Part shown: piece after piece, positions 10,476 to 58,334 of the stretch
Layout of the letters: each line of letters begins with the position of its first letter
Numbering within the stretch: the first letter of the stretch is position 1
Assembly: GCA_902789675.1 (NCBI GenBank)
Contig: CADAPG010000003.1
Span: 1 to 58,501, forward strand
DNA length: 58,501 nt
Direction of reading: 5' to 3'
DNA from: an uncultured Eubacteriales bacterium
GTDB taxonomy: Bacteria; Bacillota; Clostridia; Christensenellales; CAG-138
The notes under the pieces: generated by a model
Database searches by the model: none
What the model saw: only the letters and a program-made list of their open reading frames with translations
What the model was told of the DNA's origin: nothing
Position numbers and translations under genes: made by a program

Positions 10476-10822
10476 GGCCTTCCTCTTGAGGGGAAGCGGA
10501 TATCGTGTACCGTCGTCTCCTACAGACCGCTTCTACGGTATCTTTGCGCGCCGAAGGCGCATATCGTGCCGCAAGGTATATCGTGCCGCAAGGCATATCG
10601 TGAATCCCGCAGGGATTTATATCGCGCAGCCGTAGGGGAAGATCGTATCTTCCCGTTCCGCTGTTGCGGCGGGCGGATGATATCCGCCCCTACGGGTTCA
10701 TTGGCAAGAATGTCGCCTGCCCTTGCCTTCCCCTTGAGGGAAAGGTGGCGAGAAACGAGCCGGATGAGGTGAACACGCAGAAAAGCGTCAAGCTTTTCGC
10801 GGATGGATGAATTGTGCCTGCG
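10476..10822. repeat. composite cluster of REP-like and hairpin repeats
   Basis: CTTCCTC/GGGGAAG hairpin at 10479, ATATCG-spaced mini hairpins at 10548-10626, inverted GTAG-REP pair at 10632-10654 and 10671-10693, and a ~98 bp unit at 10725-10822 shared with 30596-30697. Confidence 0.8.
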
Positions 10823-11163
10823 GCAGATATGGGGACGCCGACGGACTCATTCGGGCTTAAGAAGATCCACTGACCGTTCAGGTACAGCGCGACGCCGTCG
10901 TCCAGATAGATATACGGCGCATTCTCGTCGCCGATGTTTGCTTCGTCCCGGTGCGTCGGCATGCTCGTCGCGGGCACGACCGAGCCGATCCGTCCCGAGA
11001 TCCCGCGTTCCGGCAGCTCTTTGACCTCGATGCCCGTCCAGTAATAGGTATAGTTTCCGATCAGCACCGCCGGAGTCGGCTGCGCCTCGATCGTTTCGAC
11101 CTTTCCCGCGGAGCAGCCCGTCAGGAGCAGCAGAATCATCCATACGGAAAGCAGTTTTTTCAT
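10690..11163 (-). CDS. lipoprotein (C-terminus probably extended by a 1-nt frameshift)
   Basis: MKKLLSVWMILLLLTGC lipobox; GGGAG RBS; the tail runs through the repeat cluster, and an alternative frame stops at 10847. Confidence 0.65.
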   Translation of the reverse strand: MKKLLSVWMILLLLTGCSAGKVETIEAQPTPAVLIGNYTYYWTGIEVKELPERGISGRIGSVVPATSMPTHRDEANIGDENAPYIYLDDGVALYLNGQWIFLSPNESVGVPISAAGTIHPSAKSLTLFCVFTSSGSFLATFPSRGRQGQATFLPMNP

Positions 11164-11298
11164 GGTCGATCTCCCTGTCATTCTCTACCTATAAAGACGT
11201 TTCAAACCGTCGAAAGGTGACGCTTTTTGCAGACAAATAAAAATCCCGCACCGTTCTGTAATACATAACGATGCGGGAGGCAAATGCGCTGCAGTTTT

Positions 11299-12393
11299 TT
11301 ACGGCTGAATTTCTCTGAGACTTTCGGCGATTTTGACGATCTCCTCCGCGGACAGGGTTCCGCTTACGGCAAAGATCGCGTTTTCGGTCGACCAGGTGAG
11401 CGTCGTCCAGTCGTCGCTGACGATCAGCAGCGCTTCTTCGCCGCGGACCGTGACGGATTCAATCCTTTGGGCATGCTCCGTGTCATACTGCGAAACGGCG
11501 GCGGGACCGTTTACCTCGATGCACAGATATCCGTCCTCGTCCCTGCCGTACGCAAGATCCGTTCCGATCTCGCTGTAGTTTCGGCGGATCGGTTCAAAAC
11601 CCTCCGGAACGTATTCGGGCGCATAGAAAAGATTCGCTTTTTCCAGCGAAGGATCCAAGGGCACGTCCGCAACGGGGACCAATTCTTCCTGAACGTGCTC
11701 TGCGATCATCAGGATTTCCGCTTCGGTCAGGGTCCCTTCCAGCCGGAAGGACGCTTTTTCGTTCGACCAAAGGAGCTCCAGCGAATCGTCCTGCCGCACG
11801 ATCAGCATGGCGGTCGCGCCGCGGAGCGGAACCGTTCGGATCTCCTTCGCGTTCTGCGTGTCGATCTCCGTACCGTCTGAACCGTACGTTGCGCGGAAGC
11901 GCATGTACCCGTCCTCGCCGCGCGTATAGAGCTCATCCGTGCCGGACGAAATGCGTTCCGAAACGAGCTCAACGCCGTCCGGCAGATATCCGATCCGATA
12001 GCGGTATGCCTTTTCGGTCTGTTTGCTTCCGTCGTTGTTGTCCAGGCTGACCTCGGCGTAATGCGGTGTGATCGAAACGAGGAATTTCGTGATCCGTCCG
12101 CGCACGGCTTCGGAGGACATCACGGTCACGAACAGGATCACGATGCAAGCCACCGCTGCAACGAGCACCTTGCCGAGGACGCGCGCGGCATGCGAAAGGG
12201 CGGGATGCTCCTTCTTCGGCTTTTTCTGCGCGGCGTCGTCGAGCGCACGGTCCAGCATTTTTTCAAAACGGCGGCGGGAAAACTCCGGGATCTCCTGTGT
12301 TTCGGGGCGTTCGGAAACAAGGATCCGGCTCTCGTATGCCGCATCCCGCGAGATCACTTCGCGGAACAGCGCGTCAAGTTGTTTCTTCGACAT
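11299..12393 (-). CDS. putative anti-sigma factor with two DUF4367-like extracellular domains
   Basis: Overlaps the ECF sigma stop; single TM ending EAVR; two repeats (YLPDG/YVPEG..LxW..GTLxxxEI). Confidence 0.8.
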   Translation of the reverse strand: MSKKQLDALFREVISRDAAYESRILVSERPETQEIPEFSRRRFEKMLDRALDDAAQKKPKKEHPALSHAARVLGKVLVAAVACIVILFVTVMSSEAVRGRITKFLVSITPHYAEVSLDNNDGSKQTEKAYRYRIGYLPDGVELVSERISSGTDELYTRGEDGYMRFRATYGSDGTEIDTQNAKEIRTVPLRGATAMLIVRQDDSLELLWSNEKASFRLEGTLTEAEILMIAEHVQEELVPVADVPLDPSLEKANLFYAPEYVPEGFEPIRRNYSEIGTDLAYGRDEDGYLCIEVNGPAAVSQYDTEHAQRIESVTVRGEEALLIVSDDWTTLTWSTENAIFAVSGTLSAEEIVKIAESLREIQP

Positions 12394-12952
12394 AGCCTTT
12401 CTCCTTGCAGATCCGATAAACCGCCTGCCTCGCCCGCGTCAGGTAGCTGCGGACGGTCGTTTCCCTGACGCCGAGCGTCTTTGCGATCTCCTTGTCCGTC
12501 ATCTCGAGAAGATACTTATAGCGCAGCACGTCCTTCAGGCTTTCGGGCAGAAACGTAAACGCCTGCCGCACCGTCTCGACGTCAAGCTTCAAAAGCGCTT
12601 GTTCCTCGGTCGAAAGCCCGGGCGCGGGCGGCTCGAAATGCGTTTCTTCGTCGTCCATACTGCCGACGATGTGCTTGCTGCGGGTTTTCTGCATGCGAAT
12701 ATAGTCCAGACACTTCCTTTTGATACACATAACGACGAAGAAGGGCAGGTTGCTGCAGGGGACTTTGTAAATTTTATCGAGATTTTTCGCGAAGTACAGA
12801 AACGTATCCTGTATGACATCCTCGACGGCGGATGCGTCCGAAAGCATGGATCTTGCTTTTTTCACCATCGCGTCGTAGTTGTCTTCATACAGGCCGCTCA
12901 GAAACGCCCGGTCCGTTTCATTCTCGATTGTCGCAAGCAATAAGGAAAGCAT
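12374..12952 (-). CDS. ECF-family RNA polymerase sigma factor
   Basis: Region 2 AVEDVIQDTFL and region 4 LPESLKDVLRYKY..EIAKTLGVRETTVRSYLTRAR; AGGAG RBS before 12952. Confidence 0.93.
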   Translation of the reverse strand: MLSLLLATIENETDRAFLSGLYEDNYDAMVKKARSMLSDASAVEDVIQDTFLYFAKNLDKIYKVPCSNLPFFVVMCIKRKCLDYIRMQKTRSKHIVGSMDDEETHFEPPAPGLSTEEQALLKLDVETVRQAFTFLPESLKDVLRYKYLLEMTDKEIAKTLGVRETTVRSYLTRARQAVYRICKEKGYVEETT

Positions 12953-12970
12953 TTCATTCTCCTGCTGTCT

Positions 12971-12998
12971 ATTGTATCGTTTCGGCACGGTTTGTCAA
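12971..12998 (-). promoter_or_regulatory. sigma-A promoter of the ECF sigma operon
   Basis: TTGACA-16-TACAAT on the minus strand. Confidence 0.65.
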
Positions 12999-13071
12999 TT
13001 CCCGCGTTGATGCGAAGGGAGGAGCCCCGAACGGCGATTTTTCAAAAAATCAAAACTTTTTTTCAAAAACG

Positions 13072-13106
13072 TCAAACCCGAACGGATTTCTTTGCGTCTA
13101 TACAGT
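13072..13106 (+). promoter_or_regulatory. ECF-type promoter TCAAACCCGA-N12-GCGTCTATACAGT
   Basis: AAC/CGTC ECF signature; near-identical copy at 56018-56052 on the minus strand. Confidence 0.7.
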
Positions 13107-13153
13107 GAAAAGCAAAACAAAAAGCGTTTGCAAAAGAAAAGGAGAGTATCACC

Positions 13154-13606
13154 ATGAGAAAAACGTATGCGTATAATTCCATCATCTTCGGCGTCCTGCT
13201 CGGCATTCTGGTCTACTGCACGACGGAGAGCATCGCGCTGACCGTCCTGACCGGCATCGGCGTTTCGGTCGTCGGCTTCTTCCTCATCCGTATGCTCGAG
13301 AAAGCGCTCTATAAGGGTGCCGACAAGGCGGCGGAAAAGATCACGGAGGCGTATCACCGCCGCAAGGAACAGAAAGCGATCGAAAACGGCACGTATCGGA
13401 AGCCCGAACCCACCACGCAGATGCCCGTGAGAACGGCGACGCAGATGCCCATGAGACCGGCAATGCAGACGACCGCCGGCACGGTTTGGGAGAAACCCAT
13501 CGAGAAGCCGGTCGTGTCGGAAACGAACTATTGCCCGTACTGCGGCAAGGCGGTGGACGGCGTTTCCCGCTTCTGCCCGTACTGCGGCAGATCGATCGAA
13601 GAATAA
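13154..13606 (+). CDS. membrane protein with C-terminal zinc ribbon
   Basis: Two TM helices; YCPYCG..FCPYCG; AGGAG RBS. Confidence 0.85.
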   Translation: MRKTYAYNSIIFGVLLGILVYCTTESIALTVLTGIGVSVVGFFLIRMLEKALYKGADKAAEKITEAYHRRKEQKAIENGTYRKPEPTTQMPVRTATQMPMRPAMQTTAGTVWEKPIEKPVVSETNYCPYCGKAVDGVSRFCPYCGRSIEE

Positions 13607-13622
13607 GAAGGAGGGAACGGAT

Positions 13623-14102
13623 ATGTGGATCGGGATTCTGGCTGCGTGCATCGCAGTTGCAATCGGCGTGATCATCGGGGTCAAGCGCGGCAAGGAGATC
13701 AAGGCGCTGCAGGAGGAAGGCAAGATCATCAAACGGGACATGAACTATGCGGAAAAGGGGCAGGAGTTCACCGCAAAGATCGGGACCTTCAGCGCGCTGG
13801 CGCAGGCGCTGAAGCAGCAGGGGATCCCCTGCACGGCGGAAGGCGCAACATCGGTGCAGGTGCTGTTTTCCGGCACGGATTTCCGGGCGCGGCTCTATAA
13901 AACGGATTTCGACGAGCCGTCCGGCATCGGCGTGTTCCGGTTCGAATTTACGCAATGGAAGATGCAACGGTATACGTATGCAAACGAAACGGGTATGAAC
14001 ATGCTTCTGACGGCGGTCGAAAAGGCGTTCTTAAGCCTTGACCCGAATACGGGCGTGGCGACCTACCCGCTGAATTACAAAACCAAACATTCGATTTTTT
14101 AA
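13623..14102 (+). CDS. membrane-anchored hypothetical protein
   Basis: N-terminal TM, GGAGG RBS, operon position. Confidence 0.8.
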   Translation: MWIGILAACIAVAIGVIIGVKRGKEIKALQEEGKIIKRDMNYAEKGQEFTAKIGTFSALAQALKQQGIPCTAEGATSVQVLFSGTDFRARLYKTDFDEPSGIGVFRFEFTQWKMQRYTYANETGMNMLLTAVEKAFLSLDPNTGVATYPLNYKTKHSIF

Positions 14103-14114
14103 GGAGGAACGGGT

Positions 14115-14303
14115 ATGCCGGATTGGGTCTGTCTTATCGGATTTTTCGTACTGATCGGGATCGTGATGGCGGTCGTCGGATTTATCGGCAACAAGATGTC
14201 GGACGGCGTGGAGAACGCGCTGCGCGCCAGGAAGCACCGGAATCGGCCGGAGCGGAAGAGCGAAAGCGCAAGCCTTTCGGAAAGATATCAGGCAGAACGC
14301 TGA
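14115..14303 (+). CDS. small single-TM protein
   Basis: AAGGAGG RBS; hydrophobic helix followed by a basic tail. Confidence 0.7.
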   Translation: MPDWVCLIGFFVLIGIVMAVVGFIGNKMSDGVENALRARKHRNRPERKSESASLSERYQAER

Positions 14304-14323
14304 CCGAAAGCACAAAAGGGATG

Positions 14324-14353
14324 AAAAAAAGGACGAATCGCTTCGTCCTTTTT
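14324..14353. terminator. bidirectional intrinsic terminator
   Basis: AAAAAAAGGACGAA-TCGC-TTCGTCCTTTTT between convergent genes. Confidence 0.75.
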
Positions 14354-14376
14354 CGTGTTTTGTATATCCGGTTGGA

Positions 14377-14571
14377 TTATTCCTTTTTCTCCTCGGGTTC
14401 GATCACGACGTCCGCCTTCGGTTCTTCCTTCTGTTCGTCGTCCTTGTTCGCCCAGTCCGAAACGACTTTCGCGCCGGTCTTGACGGAATTGACGATGCTC
14501 TTGCCCAGATCCTTGCCGAGCGAACCGAAGTCCTGTCCGACCTTCTTCCAGTTTTCCTTTAACTCTGTCAT
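14377..14571 (-). CDS. small hypothetical protein
   Basis: AAGGAG RBS; amphipathic helix and acidic tail. Confidence 0.65.
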   Translation of the reverse strand: MTELKENWKKVGQDFGSLGKDLGKSIVNSVKTGAKVVSDWANKDDEQKEEPKADVVIEPEEKKE

Positions 14572-14644
14572 ACGCGTATCTCCTTTTCCCGTTTTTCTTC
14601 AGTATACCATATCTGTTCCGGATTGCAAGTACCGATCCCGCATT

Positions 14645-16357
14645 TTAATCCCAGATGCGGTATGCCATCAGGAAGTGCTCCTTCCAGTACTTGCTTCTCA
14701 GGATGCTGTCGGTGATACGCACCTTGCCCTTCGAGGAGGATGCGTCGATCATTTTGCCGCTTCCGAGATAGATGCCGACGTGACCGGTCGCCATCGACGA
14801 TCCCTTGAAGACCATGACGTCGCCGCGCTTGATGTCGCTCATCGAGGTGATCCGCTTATACTTGGTGCAGGTACGCCACGTTTTGCTCGTCATGTAGCTC
14901 TGCTTGACGCCCGCCTGGTTCAGACACCAGTAGACGAACCCGGAGCAGTCGAACCGGTTCGGACCCTTCGCGCCGCGCACGTACTTGCAGCCGAGCTTGG
15001 ATTCCGCGATCTTGATGAACGCTTCCTTGCCCTGGCCGTAGTCGATGGTGTGACCCGGGGATCCGGTGTCGCCTTCCGGCTTTTCCGTCGGTTTCGCGGT
15101 CGGCTTCTTGGTGGGCTTCGGCGTTGTGCCGGGCTTCGGCGTCGCCGTCTTTGAGGGCTTCTTGGTTGCCTTCGGCGTTGCGGGTCTCGGCGTCGTCGGC
15201 GCCTTGACGGCTTCCTCGCCCAAAAGCAGCTGCATCGTCTCAAAATCGACCGAGCCGTTGTCTTCGACGCCGTTGCGCGTCTGGAAGTTCTTCACGGCGG
15301 CCTGCGTCTTTTCGCCGTAATAGCCGGTGACCTGATTGCCGGACAGATAGCCGAAATGCGCGAGCCGCTCCTGGATGCGGTGCACGTCCGCGCCTTCCAC
15401 GCCGACGGTGAAGGTGAACGAATCGGCTTCGCCGCTCTTCAGAAGATTGATGGTGGATTTGCCGAGGCAGCCGTCCACGACGAGACCGTTCTCCTCCTGG
15501 AAACGCCGCACCGCGTTCTGCGTCTGCTTTCCGAAGATGCCGTCCGGCAGGTAGGTGAGGTAGCCGAGCTCGTACAGGATCTGCTGGCAGTCCTGAATGG
15601 CTTCGTCTCTGTCCCCGATCGCAAAGGCGTTCGAAACGGTTTCGTCGCCGAGCAGCACTTCAAACGCGTCGTTGTCGATGATCACGCCGTCCGGCAGGTT
15701 GTTCTTCTGGCGGAACCGGCGCACCGCGGCTTCGGTCTCCTCGTCGTAAGCGCCGAACGGCATGCTGTCGAGATAGCCGAGCTCATACAGCCGCTCCTTG
15801 ACGATCTCCACATCGTCGCCGGTCGAGCCTTTGACCATGGCGTAGGTCAGAGCGTCGTCGGAGAACAGCTTCTCGTAGGTCTCCTTGTCGCAGATGCCGT
15901 TGACGTGCAGCCCGTTGCGCGCCTGGAACGAACGGACGGCGTCCGCCGTACCGTCGGAGTATTCGTCGTCCGGCTGTTCGAATTCCAGATAGTTCAGCTC
16001 CATCAGACGGATCTGGATGTCCACCACGACCGGCTCCTCGTCGCCGATCAGAAGCGAATCGCCGTTCAGCGGGTGACGCGGCGGCGTCGGCGTGGGGGAG
16101 GGGGTGGGCGTCGGAGACGGCGTCGGCGTCGGGTCAAGCGACGGCTCGGGCGTAAACTGCGCGGGGTCCGGCGTGACCATTGCCTGTTCCGGCGTCGGCG
16201 GTTCCTCAAATACGACGTCGTCGGCGGGAACCTCCGCTTTCTGCTGCGTGCCGGCGGTTACGGCGCAGCCGATCAGGAGGATCGCAAGAATGCCCGCCGT
16301 AAGCCAGACGGCGTACGTCCTCCGGGGTTTTTGTGCATTTGTATCCGGATGTTTCAT
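14645..16357 (-). CDS. peptidoglycan-binding-repeat NlpC/P60 cell-wall endopeptidase
   Basis: Four PG_binding_1-like repeats (LxELxYL..T.xAVxxFQxxNGL), PT linkers, catalytic FDCSGFV..GHVGIY; start MKHPD after GGGAG. Confidence 0.9.
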   Translation of the reverse strand: MKHPDTNAQKPRRTYAVWLTAGILAILLIGCAVTAGTQQKAEVPADDVVFEEPPTPEQAMVTPDPAQFTPEPSLDPTPTPSPTPTPSPTPTPPRHPLNGDSLLIGDEEPVVVDIQIRLMELNYLEFEQPDDEYSDGTADAVRSFQARNGLHVNGICDKETYEKLFSDDALTYAMVKGSTGDDVEIVKERLYELGYLDSMPFGAYDEETEAAVRRFRQKNNLPDGVIIDNDAFEVLLGDETVSNAFAIGDRDEAIQDCQQILYELGYLTYLPDGIFGKQTQNAVRRFQEENGLVVDGCLGKSTINLLKSGEADSFTFTVGVEGADVHRIQERLAHFGYLSGNQVTGYYGEKTQAAVKNFQTRNGVEDNGSVDFETMQLLLGEEAVKAPTTPRPATPKATKKPSKTATPKPGTTPKPTKKPTAKPTEKPEGDTGSPGHTIDYGQGKEAFIKIAESKLGCKYVRGAKGPNRFDCSGFVYWCLNQAGVKQSYMTSKTWRTCTKYKRITSMSDIKRGDVMVFKGSSMATGHVGIYLGSGKMIDASSSKGKVRITDSILRSKYWKEHFLMAYRIWD

Positions 16358-52095: not shown

Positions 52096-52142
52096 AAAAA
52101 CGGGAGCCGCTGCAGATTCTGCAGCGGCTCCCGTTTGTTTTT
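52096..52142. terminator. bidirectional terminator
   Basis: AAACGGGAGCCGCTGCAGA-T-TCTGCAGCGGCTCCCGTTT. Confidence 0.8.
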
Positions 52143-54927: not shown

Positions 54928-55952
54928 AACATATCTCCTGTGAAAACCGGTACGTCGTCATCTTCCGTTTCTTCCGTCGGTTCGGTACTCTGCGGGGGAT
55001 CCTTCTTTTCGGGCGCGGGGTCCGCTTTTCTCGCGGGCAGGGACCGGAAATACAGGATCAGACCGACGACGCCCATCGCAAGGATCGCCCATCCGAACAG
55101 TCCGATCAGGAACTTGCCGAAGGCGCCGGAAACATGGAAGGTGTTTTCAAATTTGTATTCTCCGCGCAGGACCGCCTGGATCCATCGGATCATGACGGCG
55201 TTCACGGAAACCACGTGCCGTTCGAAGGTCGAAAGGGAAAGCTTCTCGACCGTCGAGCGGATCCCGGACAGCACGGCGGCGTTCCAGATGATGACCGTGA
55301 GACCGTCCGCGATCAGAAGACCGTAGGTGAACGGATGTTCGCCTTTTCGCCTGCGCAGCAGCAGCGGCAGCAGAACCGGCAGCGGCAGCAGAAGCAGGAT
55401 CAGCATCTCCGGATGCCCGACCAGCGTAAACGAGGGCGCGTTGGTGCCGCTGAGGGTGAATTCGCCGCCGAACGCAAGCTTCATAAACGGCATCCCGGTC
55501 GAGCGCGCCGCAGAGTAGACGAAGCGGCAATACGGGAGGAACGCCGCGAGCACGACGAGCAGCAGCAAGAGCTTCGAAACGAGGGAAATGATCCCGAACG
55601 CCTTTTGCTCGCGCGTCCGGAATTCGATCGCGCGATTCAGACGGGCATTGAACGACGCGGGCTTCGGCGCGGACGGAACGGGTTTTGATTCCGGCTTCGG
55701 CGCGGGCGCCGCAGGCGGGATCCGCTGCGGCTTGCTTTGGGTTACGGGCTTCGGCTCCGGCTTCGGCGCGGGGGCCGCAGGCGGGATCCGCTGCGGTTCG
55801 CTTTGGGTTACGGGCGGAACGACCGCGGGCGATTCCGCAATCGGCTGTTCCGCCGCCTGCTTCGGGATGCTCCGCTTCTTGATGGGCGATCCGCAATGAA
55901 CGCAGAATTCTGCGTCGTCGCGAAGCTGTTTTCCGCAAGTTTGACAATACAT
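54924..55952 (-). CDS. zinc-ribbon multi-TM membrane protein
   Basis: MYCQTCG..FCVHCG, Pro-rich 22-aa duplication, four TM helices; AGGAG RBS. Confidence 0.85.
   Translation of the reverse strand: MYCQTCGKQLRDDAEFCVHCGSPIKKRSIPKQAAEQPIAESPAVVPPVTQSEPQRIPPAAPAPKPEPKPVTQSKPQRIPPAAPAPKPESKPVPSAPKPASFNARLNRAIEFRTREQKAFGIISLVSKLLLLLVVLAAFLPYCRFVYSAARSTGMPFMKLAFGGEFTLSGTNAPSFTLVGHPEMLILLLLPLPVLLPLLLRRRKGEHPFTYGLLIADGLTVIIWNAAVLSGIRSTVEKLSLSTFERHVVSVNAVMIRWIQAVLRGEYKFENTFHVSGAFGKFLIGLFGWAILAMGVVGLILYFRSLPARKADPAPEKKDPPQSTEPTEETEDDDVPVFTGDML
55691..55815. repeat. 66-bp-period coding tandem duplication
   Basis: PVTQS(E/K)PQRIPPAAPAPKPE occurs twice; DNA copies at 55691-55749 and 55757-55815. Confidence 0.85.
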
Positions 55953-56017: not shown

Positions 56018-56052
56018 ACTATATAGACGCGGGAACGGACAATCGGGTTTGA
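56018..56052 (-). promoter_or_regulatory. ECF-type promoter TCAAACCCGA-N12-GCGTCTATATAGT
   Basis: Matches 13072-13106 at 22 of 23 non-spacer positions with the same spacing. Confidence 0.7.
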
Positions 56053-56159: not shown

Positions 56160-57296
56160 TCAGAACTGGATGACGATCATCGGTCGGACAGCCTTTCCGC
56201 TGAAGTTCACCTGATATTCCCAAATATCGCCGTCGTCGTGTACGCAGTAGGCGCAGTTCGCCAGACTGGTATCATACCACCACCAGCCGTAATACTCAAC
56301 GAACTCATAGGTCTTGCTGAAATCGCCGACCCACCAGAGGCAGCGCTTCGCGTCCGCTCCCTGCGAGATCGCGTACTCGGTCGAGGACGTTTTCCGATAA
56401 TTCAGCGGCAGCCGCTTCGCGTCCTCCTTGCTCATCAGCGATACCGGCGAAGCCATCACGGCAGTCTCCTCGCTGCTGAACGCTCTGTTCCTGAAATCTT
56501 CGTTCAGCCACTTAAAGATGTCGCTGCCCAGGAAGGTGACCTCTTCGTTCTTGTTGTGGAACTTCCTGCTGTCGAGCGCGTAGACGGACAGCAGCGTGAC
56601 CTTGTTGCCTTCCTTTTCGACCACGTACCATTGGATCGGCTTCTCGCTGCCCATGGACGTCTGCGGATAGTTGCCGAACGTTACGACGTCGTACAGCGAA
56701 AGCTCGCTTGCCGATGCGACCGCTCTGCCGTTTTTCTTCAGCGGATGATCCGGCGCCGGTGTGGGCGTGGGTTCCGGCGTCGGCGCGGGTGTGGGTGTGG
56801 GCGTCGGTGCGGGCGTGGGTTCGGGCGTGGGTTCGGGCGTGGGTTCCGGCGTCGGCACGGGTGTGGGTTCGGGCGTCGGCACGGGTGTGGGTTCCGGCGT
56901 TGGCGCGGGCGTGGGCGCTTCGGTCGGCGCTTCCGCGAGCGCGGGCGTCGTCGCTTCTGTGGATTCGGACGTCGGCGCTTCGACCGGCTCTGCCGTTGCC
57001 GCAGCTTCGACCGGCTTTTCTTCCGTTTTACCGTTGCAGTTCGTTGCGGAGAAAACGATCCAGACGACTGCCGCCAGCAGCAGCGCGGACAGAACGGTGA
57101 CGCAGGCGATCAGTACCTTTTTCCCTTTTTCGGGCGGCTGCTGTCCGCCGTTCCTGTCATACTGAGAACGGGTCCCCCTCGGCGGCTCGGCATATTGATC
57201 CTTCGGTCCCTTTGATACGGGCGTTAGCTTTTTGGTTCCGCTCGGAAACGCGGTCTGTCCGTATTCCGAGCCGTTTTTATCGTACTGATTTGCCAT
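56160..57296 (-). CDS. single-TM protein with PT linker and DUF6273-like C-terminal domain
   Basis: VTFGNYPQ..PIQWYV..LLSVYALD..WLNEDF..AFS..WW..AVRP. Confidence 0.8.
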   Translation of the reverse strand: MANQYDKNGSEYGQTAFPSGTKKLTPVSKGPKDQYAEPPRGTRSQYDRNGGQQPPEKGKKVLIACVTVLSALLLAAVVWIVFSATNCNGKTEEKPVEAAATAEPVEAPTSESTEATTPALAEAPTEAPTPAPTPEPTPVPTPEPTPVPTPEPTPEPTPEPTPAPTPTPTPAPTPEPTPTPAPDHPLKKNGRAVASASELSLYDVVTFGNYPQTSMGSEKPIQWYVVEKEGNKVTLLSVYALDSRKFHNKNEEVTFLGSDIFKWLNEDFRNRAFSSEETAVMASPVSLMSKEDAKRLPLNYRKTSSTEYAISQGADAKRCLWWVGDFSKTYEFVEYYGWWWYDTSLANCAYCVHDDGDIWEYQVNFSGKAVRPMIVIQF

Positions 57297-57377
57297 ATGA
57301 TCCCCCTTTTACAATAACATGTGTGATCCGCGGCGATGCCGCAGTACGGTCATTCCTCGTTGCCGTCCGCGGCGGGT
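57283..57377. repeat. direct repeat copy 1 (leader and start of the MANQY gene)
   Basis: 57283-57356 is identical to 58321-58394 (74 bp); similarity continues to 57377/58415 and into the coding region. Confidence 0.9.
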
Positions 57378-57385
57378 GTACAGCG

Positions 57386-58334
57386 TCAGGATTCGATATT
57401 GATCCACAAAGCGGGGCGAACCGCGCCGTCCCAGGTGTGGACACGAACGCCGTCATAGCCGACGGAGCCGACATAGTTGACAATTGCGGCGAGAAAAGAA
57501 TTCATGCCGGGCGACCGCAGCCACCACCAGCAATTCCCGTCAAGAGGATTGATGTAAGCGCCGCGCTTCACAGCGTATGCCGTTGCCTGACATTTCCTTG
57601 CGCTCTCCCCGGTGAGGTATTGATTGACTTCCGTAATGCTCAGGAGGAACACCTTGTCCGTCGTGTCGCGTCCGGGAGAAGTACCGTATGACGGATTCCG
57701 ATCCGCCGTAACCGTTTCGGTTCGGATCATGGCCTGTTCATCGGCGCTGAAGGCGTTGTTGAGGAAGGTATCGTTCAGCCAGCCATGTAAAAAACAGGTT
57801 TCCCATGTTACTTCCTGTTCCTTGGCGTTATATGGCCGGCAATCGAGCGCATACCGGCTGATCACAAGCACCCGATCTTTTTCTTTTGCAAGAACCAGCC
57901 ATTCAATATCCTCTGTGCCGTTGTATGGATTGTTGTCCTGCTCATAAGAGCCGAACAGAATGATATCTCCTGCTTTTGTGCCGTCGGGTAAACGCAGTCC
58001 CGGGCGTCGGCGCTTTTGTCGTTTTTGGCGTTTCCGCGGCAGCGATGGGGTTATCTTCCGTCTTGCCTCGGTGTGTTGCGGAGAAGACGATCCAGACGAC
58101 CGCCGCGAGCAGCAGCGCGAACAGAACGGCGATGCAGACGATCAGGACTTTTTTGTTTTGATCGGGCTTTTGACCGCCGTTCCTATCATACTGAGAACGG
58201 CGTTTTCCCGACGACCCGGCATATTGATCCCCCGGGTCCTTTGACGCGGACGTCAGTTTTTTGGTTCCGCCCGGAAACGCGGTCTGTCCGTATTCCGAAC
58301 CGTTTGATCCGTTTTTGTCATACTGATTTGCCAT
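57386..58334 (-). pseudogene. frameshifted paralog: MANQY N-terminus + TM + DUF6273-like domain
   Basis: Removing one base near 57999-58004 joins ..KAPTP to GLRLPDGTKAGDIILFGSYEQDNN..IEWLVL..WWWLRSPG..VRPALWI; could also be a sequencing error. Confidence 0.75.

Follow-up and report, generated by a model that had tools for sequence, protein, structure and literature searches.

A conserved ECF-type promoter motif in an uncultured Christensenellales genome and its probable reader, a membrane-anchored zinc-ribbon sigma factor

We analysed a 58,501-nt stretch of DNA (hereafter, the window; contig CADAPG010000003.1, positions 1 to 58,501, assembly GCA_902789675.1) from an uncultured Eubacteriales bacterium of the Christensenellales, in which two copies of a motif resembling extracytoplasmic function (ECF) promoters precede two operons led by zinc-ribbon membrane proteins. 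The genome to which the window belongs (G000) comprises 2.35 Mb in 147 contigs and is 89.5% complete. The data argue that the motif, TCAAACC-N16-CGTCTAT, is very likely an ECF-type promoter, and that its reader is probably a sigma factor encoded on another contig (C55), in which zinc ribbons, an ECF sigma domain, a transmembrane (TM) helix and a long ectodomain are joined in one polypeptide (hereafter, the fusion sigma). The assignment to the fusion sigma is based on a third copy of the site at its own gene, on the matching distribution of its orthologues, on the presence of the motif at homologous genes in other genera, and on synteny. The original prediction had named the sigma factor encoded next to the first site, with the caveat that a different ECF sigma could be responsible; the caveat was well placed, because the motif tracks the C55 fusion sigma and its homologues instead.

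In a direct reading of the window, the pattern TCAAACCCGA-N12-GCGTCTATAYAGT was matched without mismatches at 13072-13106 on the + strand (site 1) and at 56018-56052 on the - strand (site 2), and no further match was found in the window when up to three mismatches were allowed. As previously reported, the two copies are alike except for a single Y position outside the spacer (C versus T) and the 12-nt spacer itself. Two matches were obtained in none of 100 dinucleotide-preserving shuffles of the window (mean 0.00). Both sites belong to the class TCAAACC-N16-CGTCTAT, with the -35 block TCAAACC at 13072-13078 and the -10 block GCGTCTAT at 13094-13101 in site 1, and the same blocks at 56052-56046 and 56030-56023, respectively, in site 2. 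Measured from the end of the 30-nt core, site 1 is located 52 nt from the ATG at 13154, and site 2 is located 70 nt from the ATG at 55952. The transcript from site 1 would be expected to start at about 13106-13112, as judged from the position of the motif.

Each copy was confirmed to precede an operon led by a zinc-ribbon membrane protein, with Pfam Zn_Ribbon_1 and TM-like segments found in both lead proteins; throughout, domains were assigned with Pfam and TM segments with a Kyte-Doolittle hydropathy scan. The three genes of operon 1 (13154-13606, 13623-14102 and 14115-14303) are on the + strand and lie close together. The first one encodes a protein of 150 aa whose N-terminal part has two hydrophobic helices (residues 6-24 and 27-45) and whose C-terminus carries a zinc ribbon (PF13240, residues 126-147, E 1.6e-7), the second one a 159-aa protein, p159, in which an N-terminal TM helix precedes an alpha/beta domain, and the last one p62, a 62-aa protein that has a single TM helix and a basic tail. 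The sequence at the end of this operon contains a terminator-like hairpin with a T run (14326-14353, + strand). Operon 2, which is on the - strand, also has three genes (55952-54924, 54927-53104 and 53054-52158). Its 342-aa lead protein has an N-terminal zinc ribbon (residues 2-23, E 3.2e-8), a Pro-rich linker and about four hydrophobic helices. The second protein, of 607 aa, has an N-terminal zinc-ribbon-like CxxC...CxxC motif and a single TM helix, and two SH3_3 stretches (E 1.3e-21) are present in its ectodomain. The third, of 298 aa, is lipoprotein-like, with a signal peptide ending in Cys. An 18-bp hairpin at 52098-52136, which is predicted from the sequence to be a bidirectional terminator, closes operon 2.

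A genome-wide scan and a search for conservation in related genomes had both been proposed as checks on the motif, and both extended it beyond the window. The whole-genome scan of G000 revealed a third copy, TCAAACCGAATTGCAGTTTGCCGCGTCTATGTAGT, at C55:3959-3993, 52 nt before the ATG of the fusion sigma gene, a sigma gene different from that adjacent to site 1. Among 28 genomes of the genus, the motif was present in four: the exact core TCAAACC-N16-CGTCTRT, with 14 defined nucleotides, was found at 14 sites, of which three were in G000, five in G002, three in G004, and three in G010. The exact core was absent from the other 24 genomes of the genus, and a reversed-pattern control gave no match in any of the 28. 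All 14 sites are intergenic and each of them points at a gene, with the first candidate ATG 19-103 nt downstream. Most of them are accompanied by a Shine-Dalgarno-like run, and an A/T-rich stretch upstream is common to them. The blocks TCAAACC and GCGTCTAT show little or no variation across all 14, which corresponds to the bipartite AAC and CGT(C) elements of ECF promoters. The distance from TCAAACC to (G/A)CGTCT is 15 nt at every site and the spacers are unrelated in sequence; the same spacing was seen in other genera. Hits with one mismatch to the 14-nt core (three in the four genomes) were not accepted as sites, because they equalled the control (three) and lay inside coding sequence, and a looser scan with CAAAC-N15-19-CGTCT, which gave 27 mostly intragenic matches, was judged to return background.

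The two conserved blocks, the fixed spacer, and the intergenic, gene-directed placement make it very likely that the motif is an ECF-type promoter. In this respect the earlier reading of it as a promoter defining an envelope regulon of zinc-ribbon, TM and SH3 proteins stands, while the part that made the neighbouring sigma its driver does not. The motif could instead be a sigma-A promoter combined with a transcription-factor operator, or the remnant of a mobile repeat, and it is true that sites 2 and 3 overlap the sequence TTGnnn-18-TATAAT, which in site 2 reads TTGTCC-18-TATAAT. However, site 1 and the majority of the 14 sites lack TATAAT and TTG, the conservation is limited to two non-palindromic blocks whose spacer is constant in length but free in sequence, the flanks of the sites are unrelated to one another, and no Rfam match was found in the window. 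Hence, we regard both of these explanations as very improbable.

The fusion sigma gene is located outside the window, at C55:4040-7813, and encodes a protein of 1257 aa. Two zinc ribbons (residues 2-56) are followed by Sigma70_r2 (100-166) and Sigma70_r4_2 (202-252), with the Sigma70_ECF family spanning residues 88-257 (E 9.7e-9). After region 4 there is an Ala/Lys-rich linker, a single hydrophobic helix (378-396), and an ectodomain of about 860 residues, which ends in two NPCBM domains. Only sigma regions 2 and 4 are present, and Pfam detected neither a region 3 nor a region 1.2 family, as is characteristic of ECF sigma factors. The combination of a sigma domain, a TM helix, and an extracytoplasmic domain in one polypeptide is of the kind represented by ECF52 and IutY. 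Orthologues of the fusion sigma (67-73% identity in the first 293 residues) were found in exactly the four genomes that carry the motif, G000, G002, G004, and G010, while the next best match in the genus had at most 41% identity. The location of a promoter motif before the gene of a sigma factor is the classical autoregulatory arrangement of ECF systems. This arrangement was observed for the fusion sigma, where a site is located directly upstream of all five fusion genes in the genus, two of which are in G010. In the second G010 copy (C2:2037-2886, locus L067) the zinc ribbon, within a 68-aa open reading frame, and the sigma-TM part are in different frames, which is either a natural split or the result of a frameshift or an error in the assembly. 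Further G000 sigma genes with long C-terminal extensions, at C63:4861-7154 and C2:75560, were also noted; the open frames observed were of 1005, 531, and 442 aa, the first two of which have about 31% identity to the fusion sigma domain, and the TCAAACC motif was not found at the C63 and C2 genes.

The neighbouring sigma factor, to which the two sites had been assigned in the original prediction, is indeed encoded divergently from site 1 together with a two-domain anti-sigma candidate. The 192-aa sigma gene (12374-12952, - strand) matches Pfam Sigma70_r2, Sigma70_r4_2, and Sigma70_ECF, and the predicted product of the next gene (11299-12393, - strand) has its N-terminus in the cytoplasm, a single TM helix, and two DUF4367 stretches. 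Several observations would fit with this sigma, held by its DUF4367 anti-sigma, reading both sites: site 1 is located 120 nt from its start codon, ECF targets often adjoin their sigma, and its orthologues are present in the motif-bearing genomes G002 and G004. However, the motif points away from this gene, which has a promoter of its own, predicted from the sequence to be of the sigma-A type (TTGACA-16-TACAAT, 11/12; 12971-12998, - strand). Orthologues of the neighbouring sigma (64-72% identity) were found in G002, G004, G007, G009, and G026, and all five loci carry a sigma-A-type promoter, which is TTGACA-N16-TAAAAT or TTGACA-N16-TAAACT in four of them and TGGTATAAT in G002. The TCAAACC motif was not found on the own strand of the neighbouring sigma gene or of its five orthologues, and hence the autoregulatory arrangement was not observed for this sigma. 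The distribution of the two elements does not match either, because G007, G009, and G026 have an orthologue (64-67% identity) and no site, while G010, a genome that is 74% complete, has three sites and no orthologue was found in it. Neither is the adjacency conserved: the site and the operon in G002 are 16.5 kb from the sigma orthologue (site at C24:26446, sigma at C24:9366), and in G004 the sites and the sigma orthologue are on different contigs. A BLASTP comparison gave no match between the neighbouring and fusion sigma domains at E < 1e-3. Since there are 26 Sigma70_r4_2 matches above the cut-off in G000, adjacency alone is an unsafe guide to promoter assignment. These data make it quite unlikely that the neighbouring sigma reads the sites.

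The neighbouring pair can be compared by description with the ECF106 group. In PMC7826278, ECF106 is described as a Firmicutes group with an anti-sigma at position +1, which has one TM helix and DUF4367, and as being without a conserved target motif, which also speaks against a role of such a sigma at the TCAAACC sites. The pair in the window shares with this description the +1 anti-sigma, the single TM helix, DUF4367, and the lack of an autoregulatory ECF motif, and differs in that its anti-sigma has two copies of DUF4367. Hence, 12374-12952 and 11299-12393 fit the description of a separate ECF106-like system, which would not be autoregulated and would adjoin site 1 by chance.

The association of the motif with the fusion sigma was also seen beyond the genus. 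A contig scan gave 31 loci encoding homologues, of which four from Bacteroidota (at most 31% identity) and one lacking upstream DNA were dropped, leaving 26. Of these 26 loci, 15 have the relaxed motif [ACT]AAAC[CT]-N16-[CT][GA]TCTNT in the 650 nt preceding the sigma domain, and an additional locus, L108, has the motif at the level of the operon. The density of the relaxed motif was 15 matches in 16.5 kb of upstream sequence, versus two in the other 141 kb of these loci. Furthermore, the motif drifts by sigma lineage, with the forms TTAAACC...GCGTCTAT, GTAAAACC...GCATCTAT, and TCAAACC...GCTGTCTTATA, as is expected of a co-evolving pair of sigma and promoter. When the search was done with proteins at the level of the order, two of 300 other genomes gave a match at E <=1e-45; one of these genes is preceded by the variant GTAAAACC-N15-GCATCTAT, and the other is located inside an operon.

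Gene order in relatives places the counterparts of both window operons beside the fusion sigma, as seen in L108 and G004. In L108, which has 63% identity in the sigma domain, the exact motif TCAAACC-N15-GCGTCTAT at 338-366 is on one strand with three downstream genes. These encode a homologue of the 13154-13606 protein (59% identity over residues 1-83, lacking the zinc ribbon), a p159 homologue (40%), and the sigma-TM protein. The co-directional cluster in G004 begins with a site, the fusion sigma, a second site, a p159-like protein, and a TM protein, and continues with a homologue of the 55952-54924 protein (51% over residues 137-300, its TM part) and an orthologue of the 54927-53104 protein (35%, residues 1-606). 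It ends with a TM protein, a DUF6273 lipoprotein, and a homologue of the 53054-52158 protein, which has 44% identity to the N-terminal part of this last cluster gene. The site for the p159-like gene in G004 (C9:30047-30168, corresponding to L138:6049-6169) is located inside the last 120 nt of the fusion-sigma open frame; either the true stop of the fusion gene is elsewhere or the promoter is embedded in coding sequence. In G002, the operon orthologous to 13154-14303 (55%, 69%, and 45% identity gene by gene, the last value being for the p62 homologue in the equivalent position) keeps its site. The regulon is otherwise variable, as G002, G004, and G010 add lipoproteins and secreted proteins with BspA-type leucine-rich repeats, with DUF6273, with a weak DUF5050-like match, or with no Pfam family, while the recurrent core consists of the sigma itself, p159, and zinc-ribbon/TM proteins.

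Several observations weigh against the assignment of the sites to the fusion sigma. The four genomes that have both the motif and the fusion sigma may be no more than the closest kin, so that their co-occurrence is not an independent statistic; the positional evidence outweighs it. The relaxed motif was not seen in the 650-nt window of 10 of the 26 homologous loci, some of which have the gene inside an operon. The loci L104 and L106 share their motif sequences with G004 and G010 and probably come from genomes that are identical or almost identical to these, and L115 is near-identical to L118, so that fewer of the loci are independent. No Pfam anti-sigma domain (ZAS or FecR-like) was found between region 4 and the TM helix of the fusion sigma. 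An RNA contig from run X1 covers 13031-13315 and spans the motif, and if it is derived from RNA the transcript reads through the site, although it may be carried-over DNA; the RNA material for 10600-14700 consisted of four library runs from two studies, which were picked using this stretch of the window, and of short, low-depth Logan contigs that carry no information on start, strand or level. Because the assembly is a draft (89.5% complete, 147 contigs) with the fusion sigma on a contig other than that of the window, further sites or sigma genes may be missing from it. Finally, a stand-alone sigma gene on contig C27 is preceded by a similar motif, TGTAACC-N15-GCGTCTGT, and its product could cross-read the sites.

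This last point leads to the explanation that another stand-alone ECF sigma reads or co-reads the sites, with the 174-aa protein encoded at C27:16671-16823 as the best candidate, and that the motif before the fusion gene reflects a cascade. The C27 motif shares AACC-N15-GCGTCT and the spacing with the main motif, and the 26 Sigma70_r4_2 matches in the genome make overlapping specificities plausible. On the other hand, the -35 block of the C27 motif deviates at two of seven invariant positions, and there is no TCAAACC site upstream of the C27 gene. Moreover, the motif follows the fusion-sigma homologues into other genera and families, as autoregulation would predict, whereas a cascade bound to one genus would not. 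A role of a stand-alone sigma is, hence, considered unlikely, while the fusion sigma remains the probable reader of the TCAAACC sites. The genome also has sigma genes with ECF-like upstream motifs of their own on contigs C40 (GGGAAC...GCGTCTTAC) and C121 (TGAAAC...CGTTATAT).

If the fusion sigma reads the sites, it would activate its own gene through the identical promoter and drive both window operons, 13154-14303 and 55952-52158, and with them the zinc-ribbon/TM proteins, p159, an SH3_3 wall-binding protein, and a lipoprotein. Its sigma domain would be cytoplasmic, tethered by the single TM helix, and kept inactive at the membrane. The ectodomain with its NPCBM glycan-binding modules would sense a surface or carbohydrate cue, upon which the sigma domain would be released or activated. 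The likely route would be regulated intramembrane proteolysis by site-1 and site-2 proteases, as for IutY and as proposed for ECF52. We give activation by proteolytic release about an even chance. A gene for an M50 site-2 protease is present in G000 (C21:14641-15789, E 3.9e-59). Alternatively, the sigma could act while tethered, by means of the linker of about 120 residues. Once activated, the fusion sigma would raise its own synthesis and that of the regulon, with the zinc-ribbon and p159 proteins as accessory regulators or effectors.

To describe the family more broadly, relatives of the sigma domain were collected from protein clusters. There were 115 clusters of 691-2200 aa (E <=1e-10) and a further 153 of at most 690 aa (E <=1e-30), which makes more than 260 in total, all of them with a long C-terminal part. 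Their source names were only "RNA polymerase sigma factor", and they come from metagenome-assembled genomes (MAGs) of Clostridia, Oscillospiraceae, and Ruminococcus. Of the near-identical sigma-TM loci L115 and L118, one carries the label of a Candidatus Saccharimonadales MAG, which looks like a binning error, and the other that of a Lachnospiraceae MAG. The ectodomains vary within the family, and include NPCBM, Lipase_3, DUF6273, SH3_3, RHS, RCC1-like, and SLH domains. The most conserved stretch is located directly after region 4, at about residues 258-295 of the fusion sigma (L099), with E181-R187 and G190 invariant. Its segment EIEEQERKSGQ-F-G has eight invariant columns among 24 sequences (alignment A2) and is followed by a linker of low complexity; it could be an inhibitory or a protease-recognition segment.

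The zinc ribbon is present at the N-terminus in about 30 of the 115 long clusters. In L111, L117, and L123, a separate gene of 86-109 aa with two to four zinc ribbons is located between the motif and the sigma-TM gene, and these free proteins align with the fused N-termini. The fact that the ribbon is fused in some loci and encoded by a separate gene in others suggests that it may work together with the sigma domain. A complex prediction for the free zinc-ribbon protein of L117 and its sigma domain (alignments A3 and A2, two zinc ions) gave a score of 0.00, which counts neither way.

Because its homologues adjoin sigma-TM genes in L108 and G004, p159 is, as far as gene order can tell, a recurrent companion of the fusion sigma. 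No Pfam family matched it, and its family comprises 58 protein clusters, every one of which is unnamed or "hypothetical"; likewise, the protein Atlas returned only "hypothetical protein" clusters. The AlphaFold2 model of p159 had a mean predicted local distance difference test (pLDDT) score of 86.3. A Foldseek search of this model against the PDB gave weak and heterogeneous matches only (best E 4.3e-4, query TM-score at most 0.40), which included the spermine-synthase N-domain, KA1, and PII-like folds.

Fusions of sigma and anti-sigma have been described before. For IutY (ECF243), regulated intramembrane proteolysis by Prc and RseP was shown experimentally, according to PMC8999054. For ECF52, in which PMC7826278 mentions a zinc finger, a TM helix, and NPCBM/NEW2 named for subgroup ECF52s1, proteolytic removal of the extension was proposed (PMC8999054). 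The ECF52 proteins of Actinobacteria, with SCO4117 of Streptomyces coelicolor as the model, resemble the fusion sigma in having an ECF sigma domain, a zinc module, one or two TM segments, and a carbohydrate-binding ectodomain. However, the zinc finger of ECF52, which is likely a ZAS domain, is located after region 4, whereas the fusion sigma has a double rubredoxin-type zinc ribbon (PF13240/PF12773) N-terminal to region 2, which in other members of its family may be a separate gene. By description, the fusion-sigma family is further set apart by its far longer and interchangeable ectodomain and by its Bacillota (Clostridia) hosts. IutY from Pseudomonas putida is similar in that a TM segment connects its sigma domain with a sensing part outside the cytoplasm, while it differs in being a FecI-FecR fusion that works with a TonB-dependent receptor in a Gram-negative envelope, in its unrelated promoter class, and in having neither a zinc ribbon, nor NPCBM, nor a p159 partner. 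The features that differ from the described systems are the N-terminal double zinc ribbon, which may also occur as a free gene, the lack of a recognisable anti-sigma domain, the p159 family, and the modular ectodomains.

The promoter motif also has known counterparts. Classical ECF promoters of Bacillota, of the SigW, SigX, and SigM type, have the form TGAAAC or TGTAAC, a spacer of 16-17 nt, and CGTA or CGTC. They share with the TCAAACC motif the AAC in the -35 element, the CGTC in the -10 element, the 16-17-nt spacer, and the location before the own sigma gene, while the motif described here differs in its -35 block TCAAACC and in its -10 block extended to GCGTCTAT(A/G)yrGT. For ECF116, which includes SigX, TGAAAC / CGTCTAAT is given in PMC7826278. 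The strings CAAACC, TCAAAC, and GCGTCTA were not found in the part of the supplement of PMC7826278 that was searched. In the literature covered, neither a zinc-ribbon-sigma-TM family in Clostridia nor the motif was found to be described, and the supplement of PMC7826278, covered in part, may still describe a matching ECF group.

These comparisons turn an observation of two sites into a testable system, which consists of the promoter class TCAAACC-N16-CGTCTAT, a candidate membrane-anchored zinc-ribbon sigma, and conserved partner genes. They also illustrate that an ECF-type promoter next to a sigma gene is insufficient for its assignment, which was here changed by comparative genomics. A family of more than 260 clusters with interchangeable ectodomains suggests a modular coupling of the recognition of surface or glycan cues to transcription, and the pair of promoter and sigma domain could serve as an orthogonal expression part for Clostridia. 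A more speculative possibility, which we hold only tentatively, is that gut and rumen Clostridia contain a large, previously undescribed class of one-polypeptide transmembrane sigma systems. Such systems would combine a membrane-tethered ECF sigma and swappable sensing ectodomains (NPCBM, SH3, DUF6273, lipase-like, RHS) with cytoplasm-facing partners, namely p159 and rubredoxin-type zinc ribbons, which are fused, free or carried on membrane proteins, and the zinc-ribbon proteins, by binding to RNA polymerase or to the sigma, would determine the gain of the positive feedback. If true, this would be a regulatory principle unlike that of classical anti-sigma domains.

A looser version of the motif had been noted before the lipoprotein gene 11163-10690. 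A real and conserved site was found there, at 11187-11223 on the - strand, which turned out to be a second, distinct ECF-type motif, GCGTCAC-N16-ACGTCTTTATAGGT, outside the TCAAACC regulon. The sequence CGTCTTTATAG occurs only twice in G000, and its second copy (C141:4-40, + strand) precedes a gene for a 170-aa sigma at the start of contig C141. With up to three mismatches allowed, the second motif was found in 11 of the 28 genus genomes, with none in the control, and its general form is GCG(T/A)(C/T)(A/C)C-N16-ACGTCTTTATAGGT. Its sites fall into two groups, one with GCGTCAC or GTGTCAC...TATAGGTAGAGA preceding genes orthologous to the lipoprotein gene 11163-10690 (G000, G002, G004, G012, and G013), and the other one with GCGATCC or GCGATAC...TATAGGTGAACGG before sigma genes of the C141 type, of 170-172 aa, at seven loci. 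The lipoprotein gene follows the anti-sigma orthologue in G004, as it does in the window, and does not do so in G002. Two candidate readers of the second motif were considered, and neither matched its distribution fully: orthologues of the neighbouring sigma 12374-12952 are present in only three of the five genomes with a lipoprotein site, and the C141-type sigma is present in four of these five and was not found in G002.

Some further features were observed around the two sites. Upstream of 13031, the X1 contig continues into 57 nt unlike the window, which points to a strain where the left-hand neighbour of site 1 and its operon is a different one. Immediately upstream of site 2, a cluster of paralogous genes for DUF6273 membrane proteins and lipoproteins (56160-58334, - strand) ends at a terminator at 56134-56111, and DUF6273 genes were also noted on G000 contigs C79 and C67. 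Some homologues of the fusion sigma also have DUF6273 as their ectodomain, and the motif targets in G004 include a DUF6273 lipoprotein. Similarly, SH3_3 is present in the regulon as well as among the sigma ectodomains.

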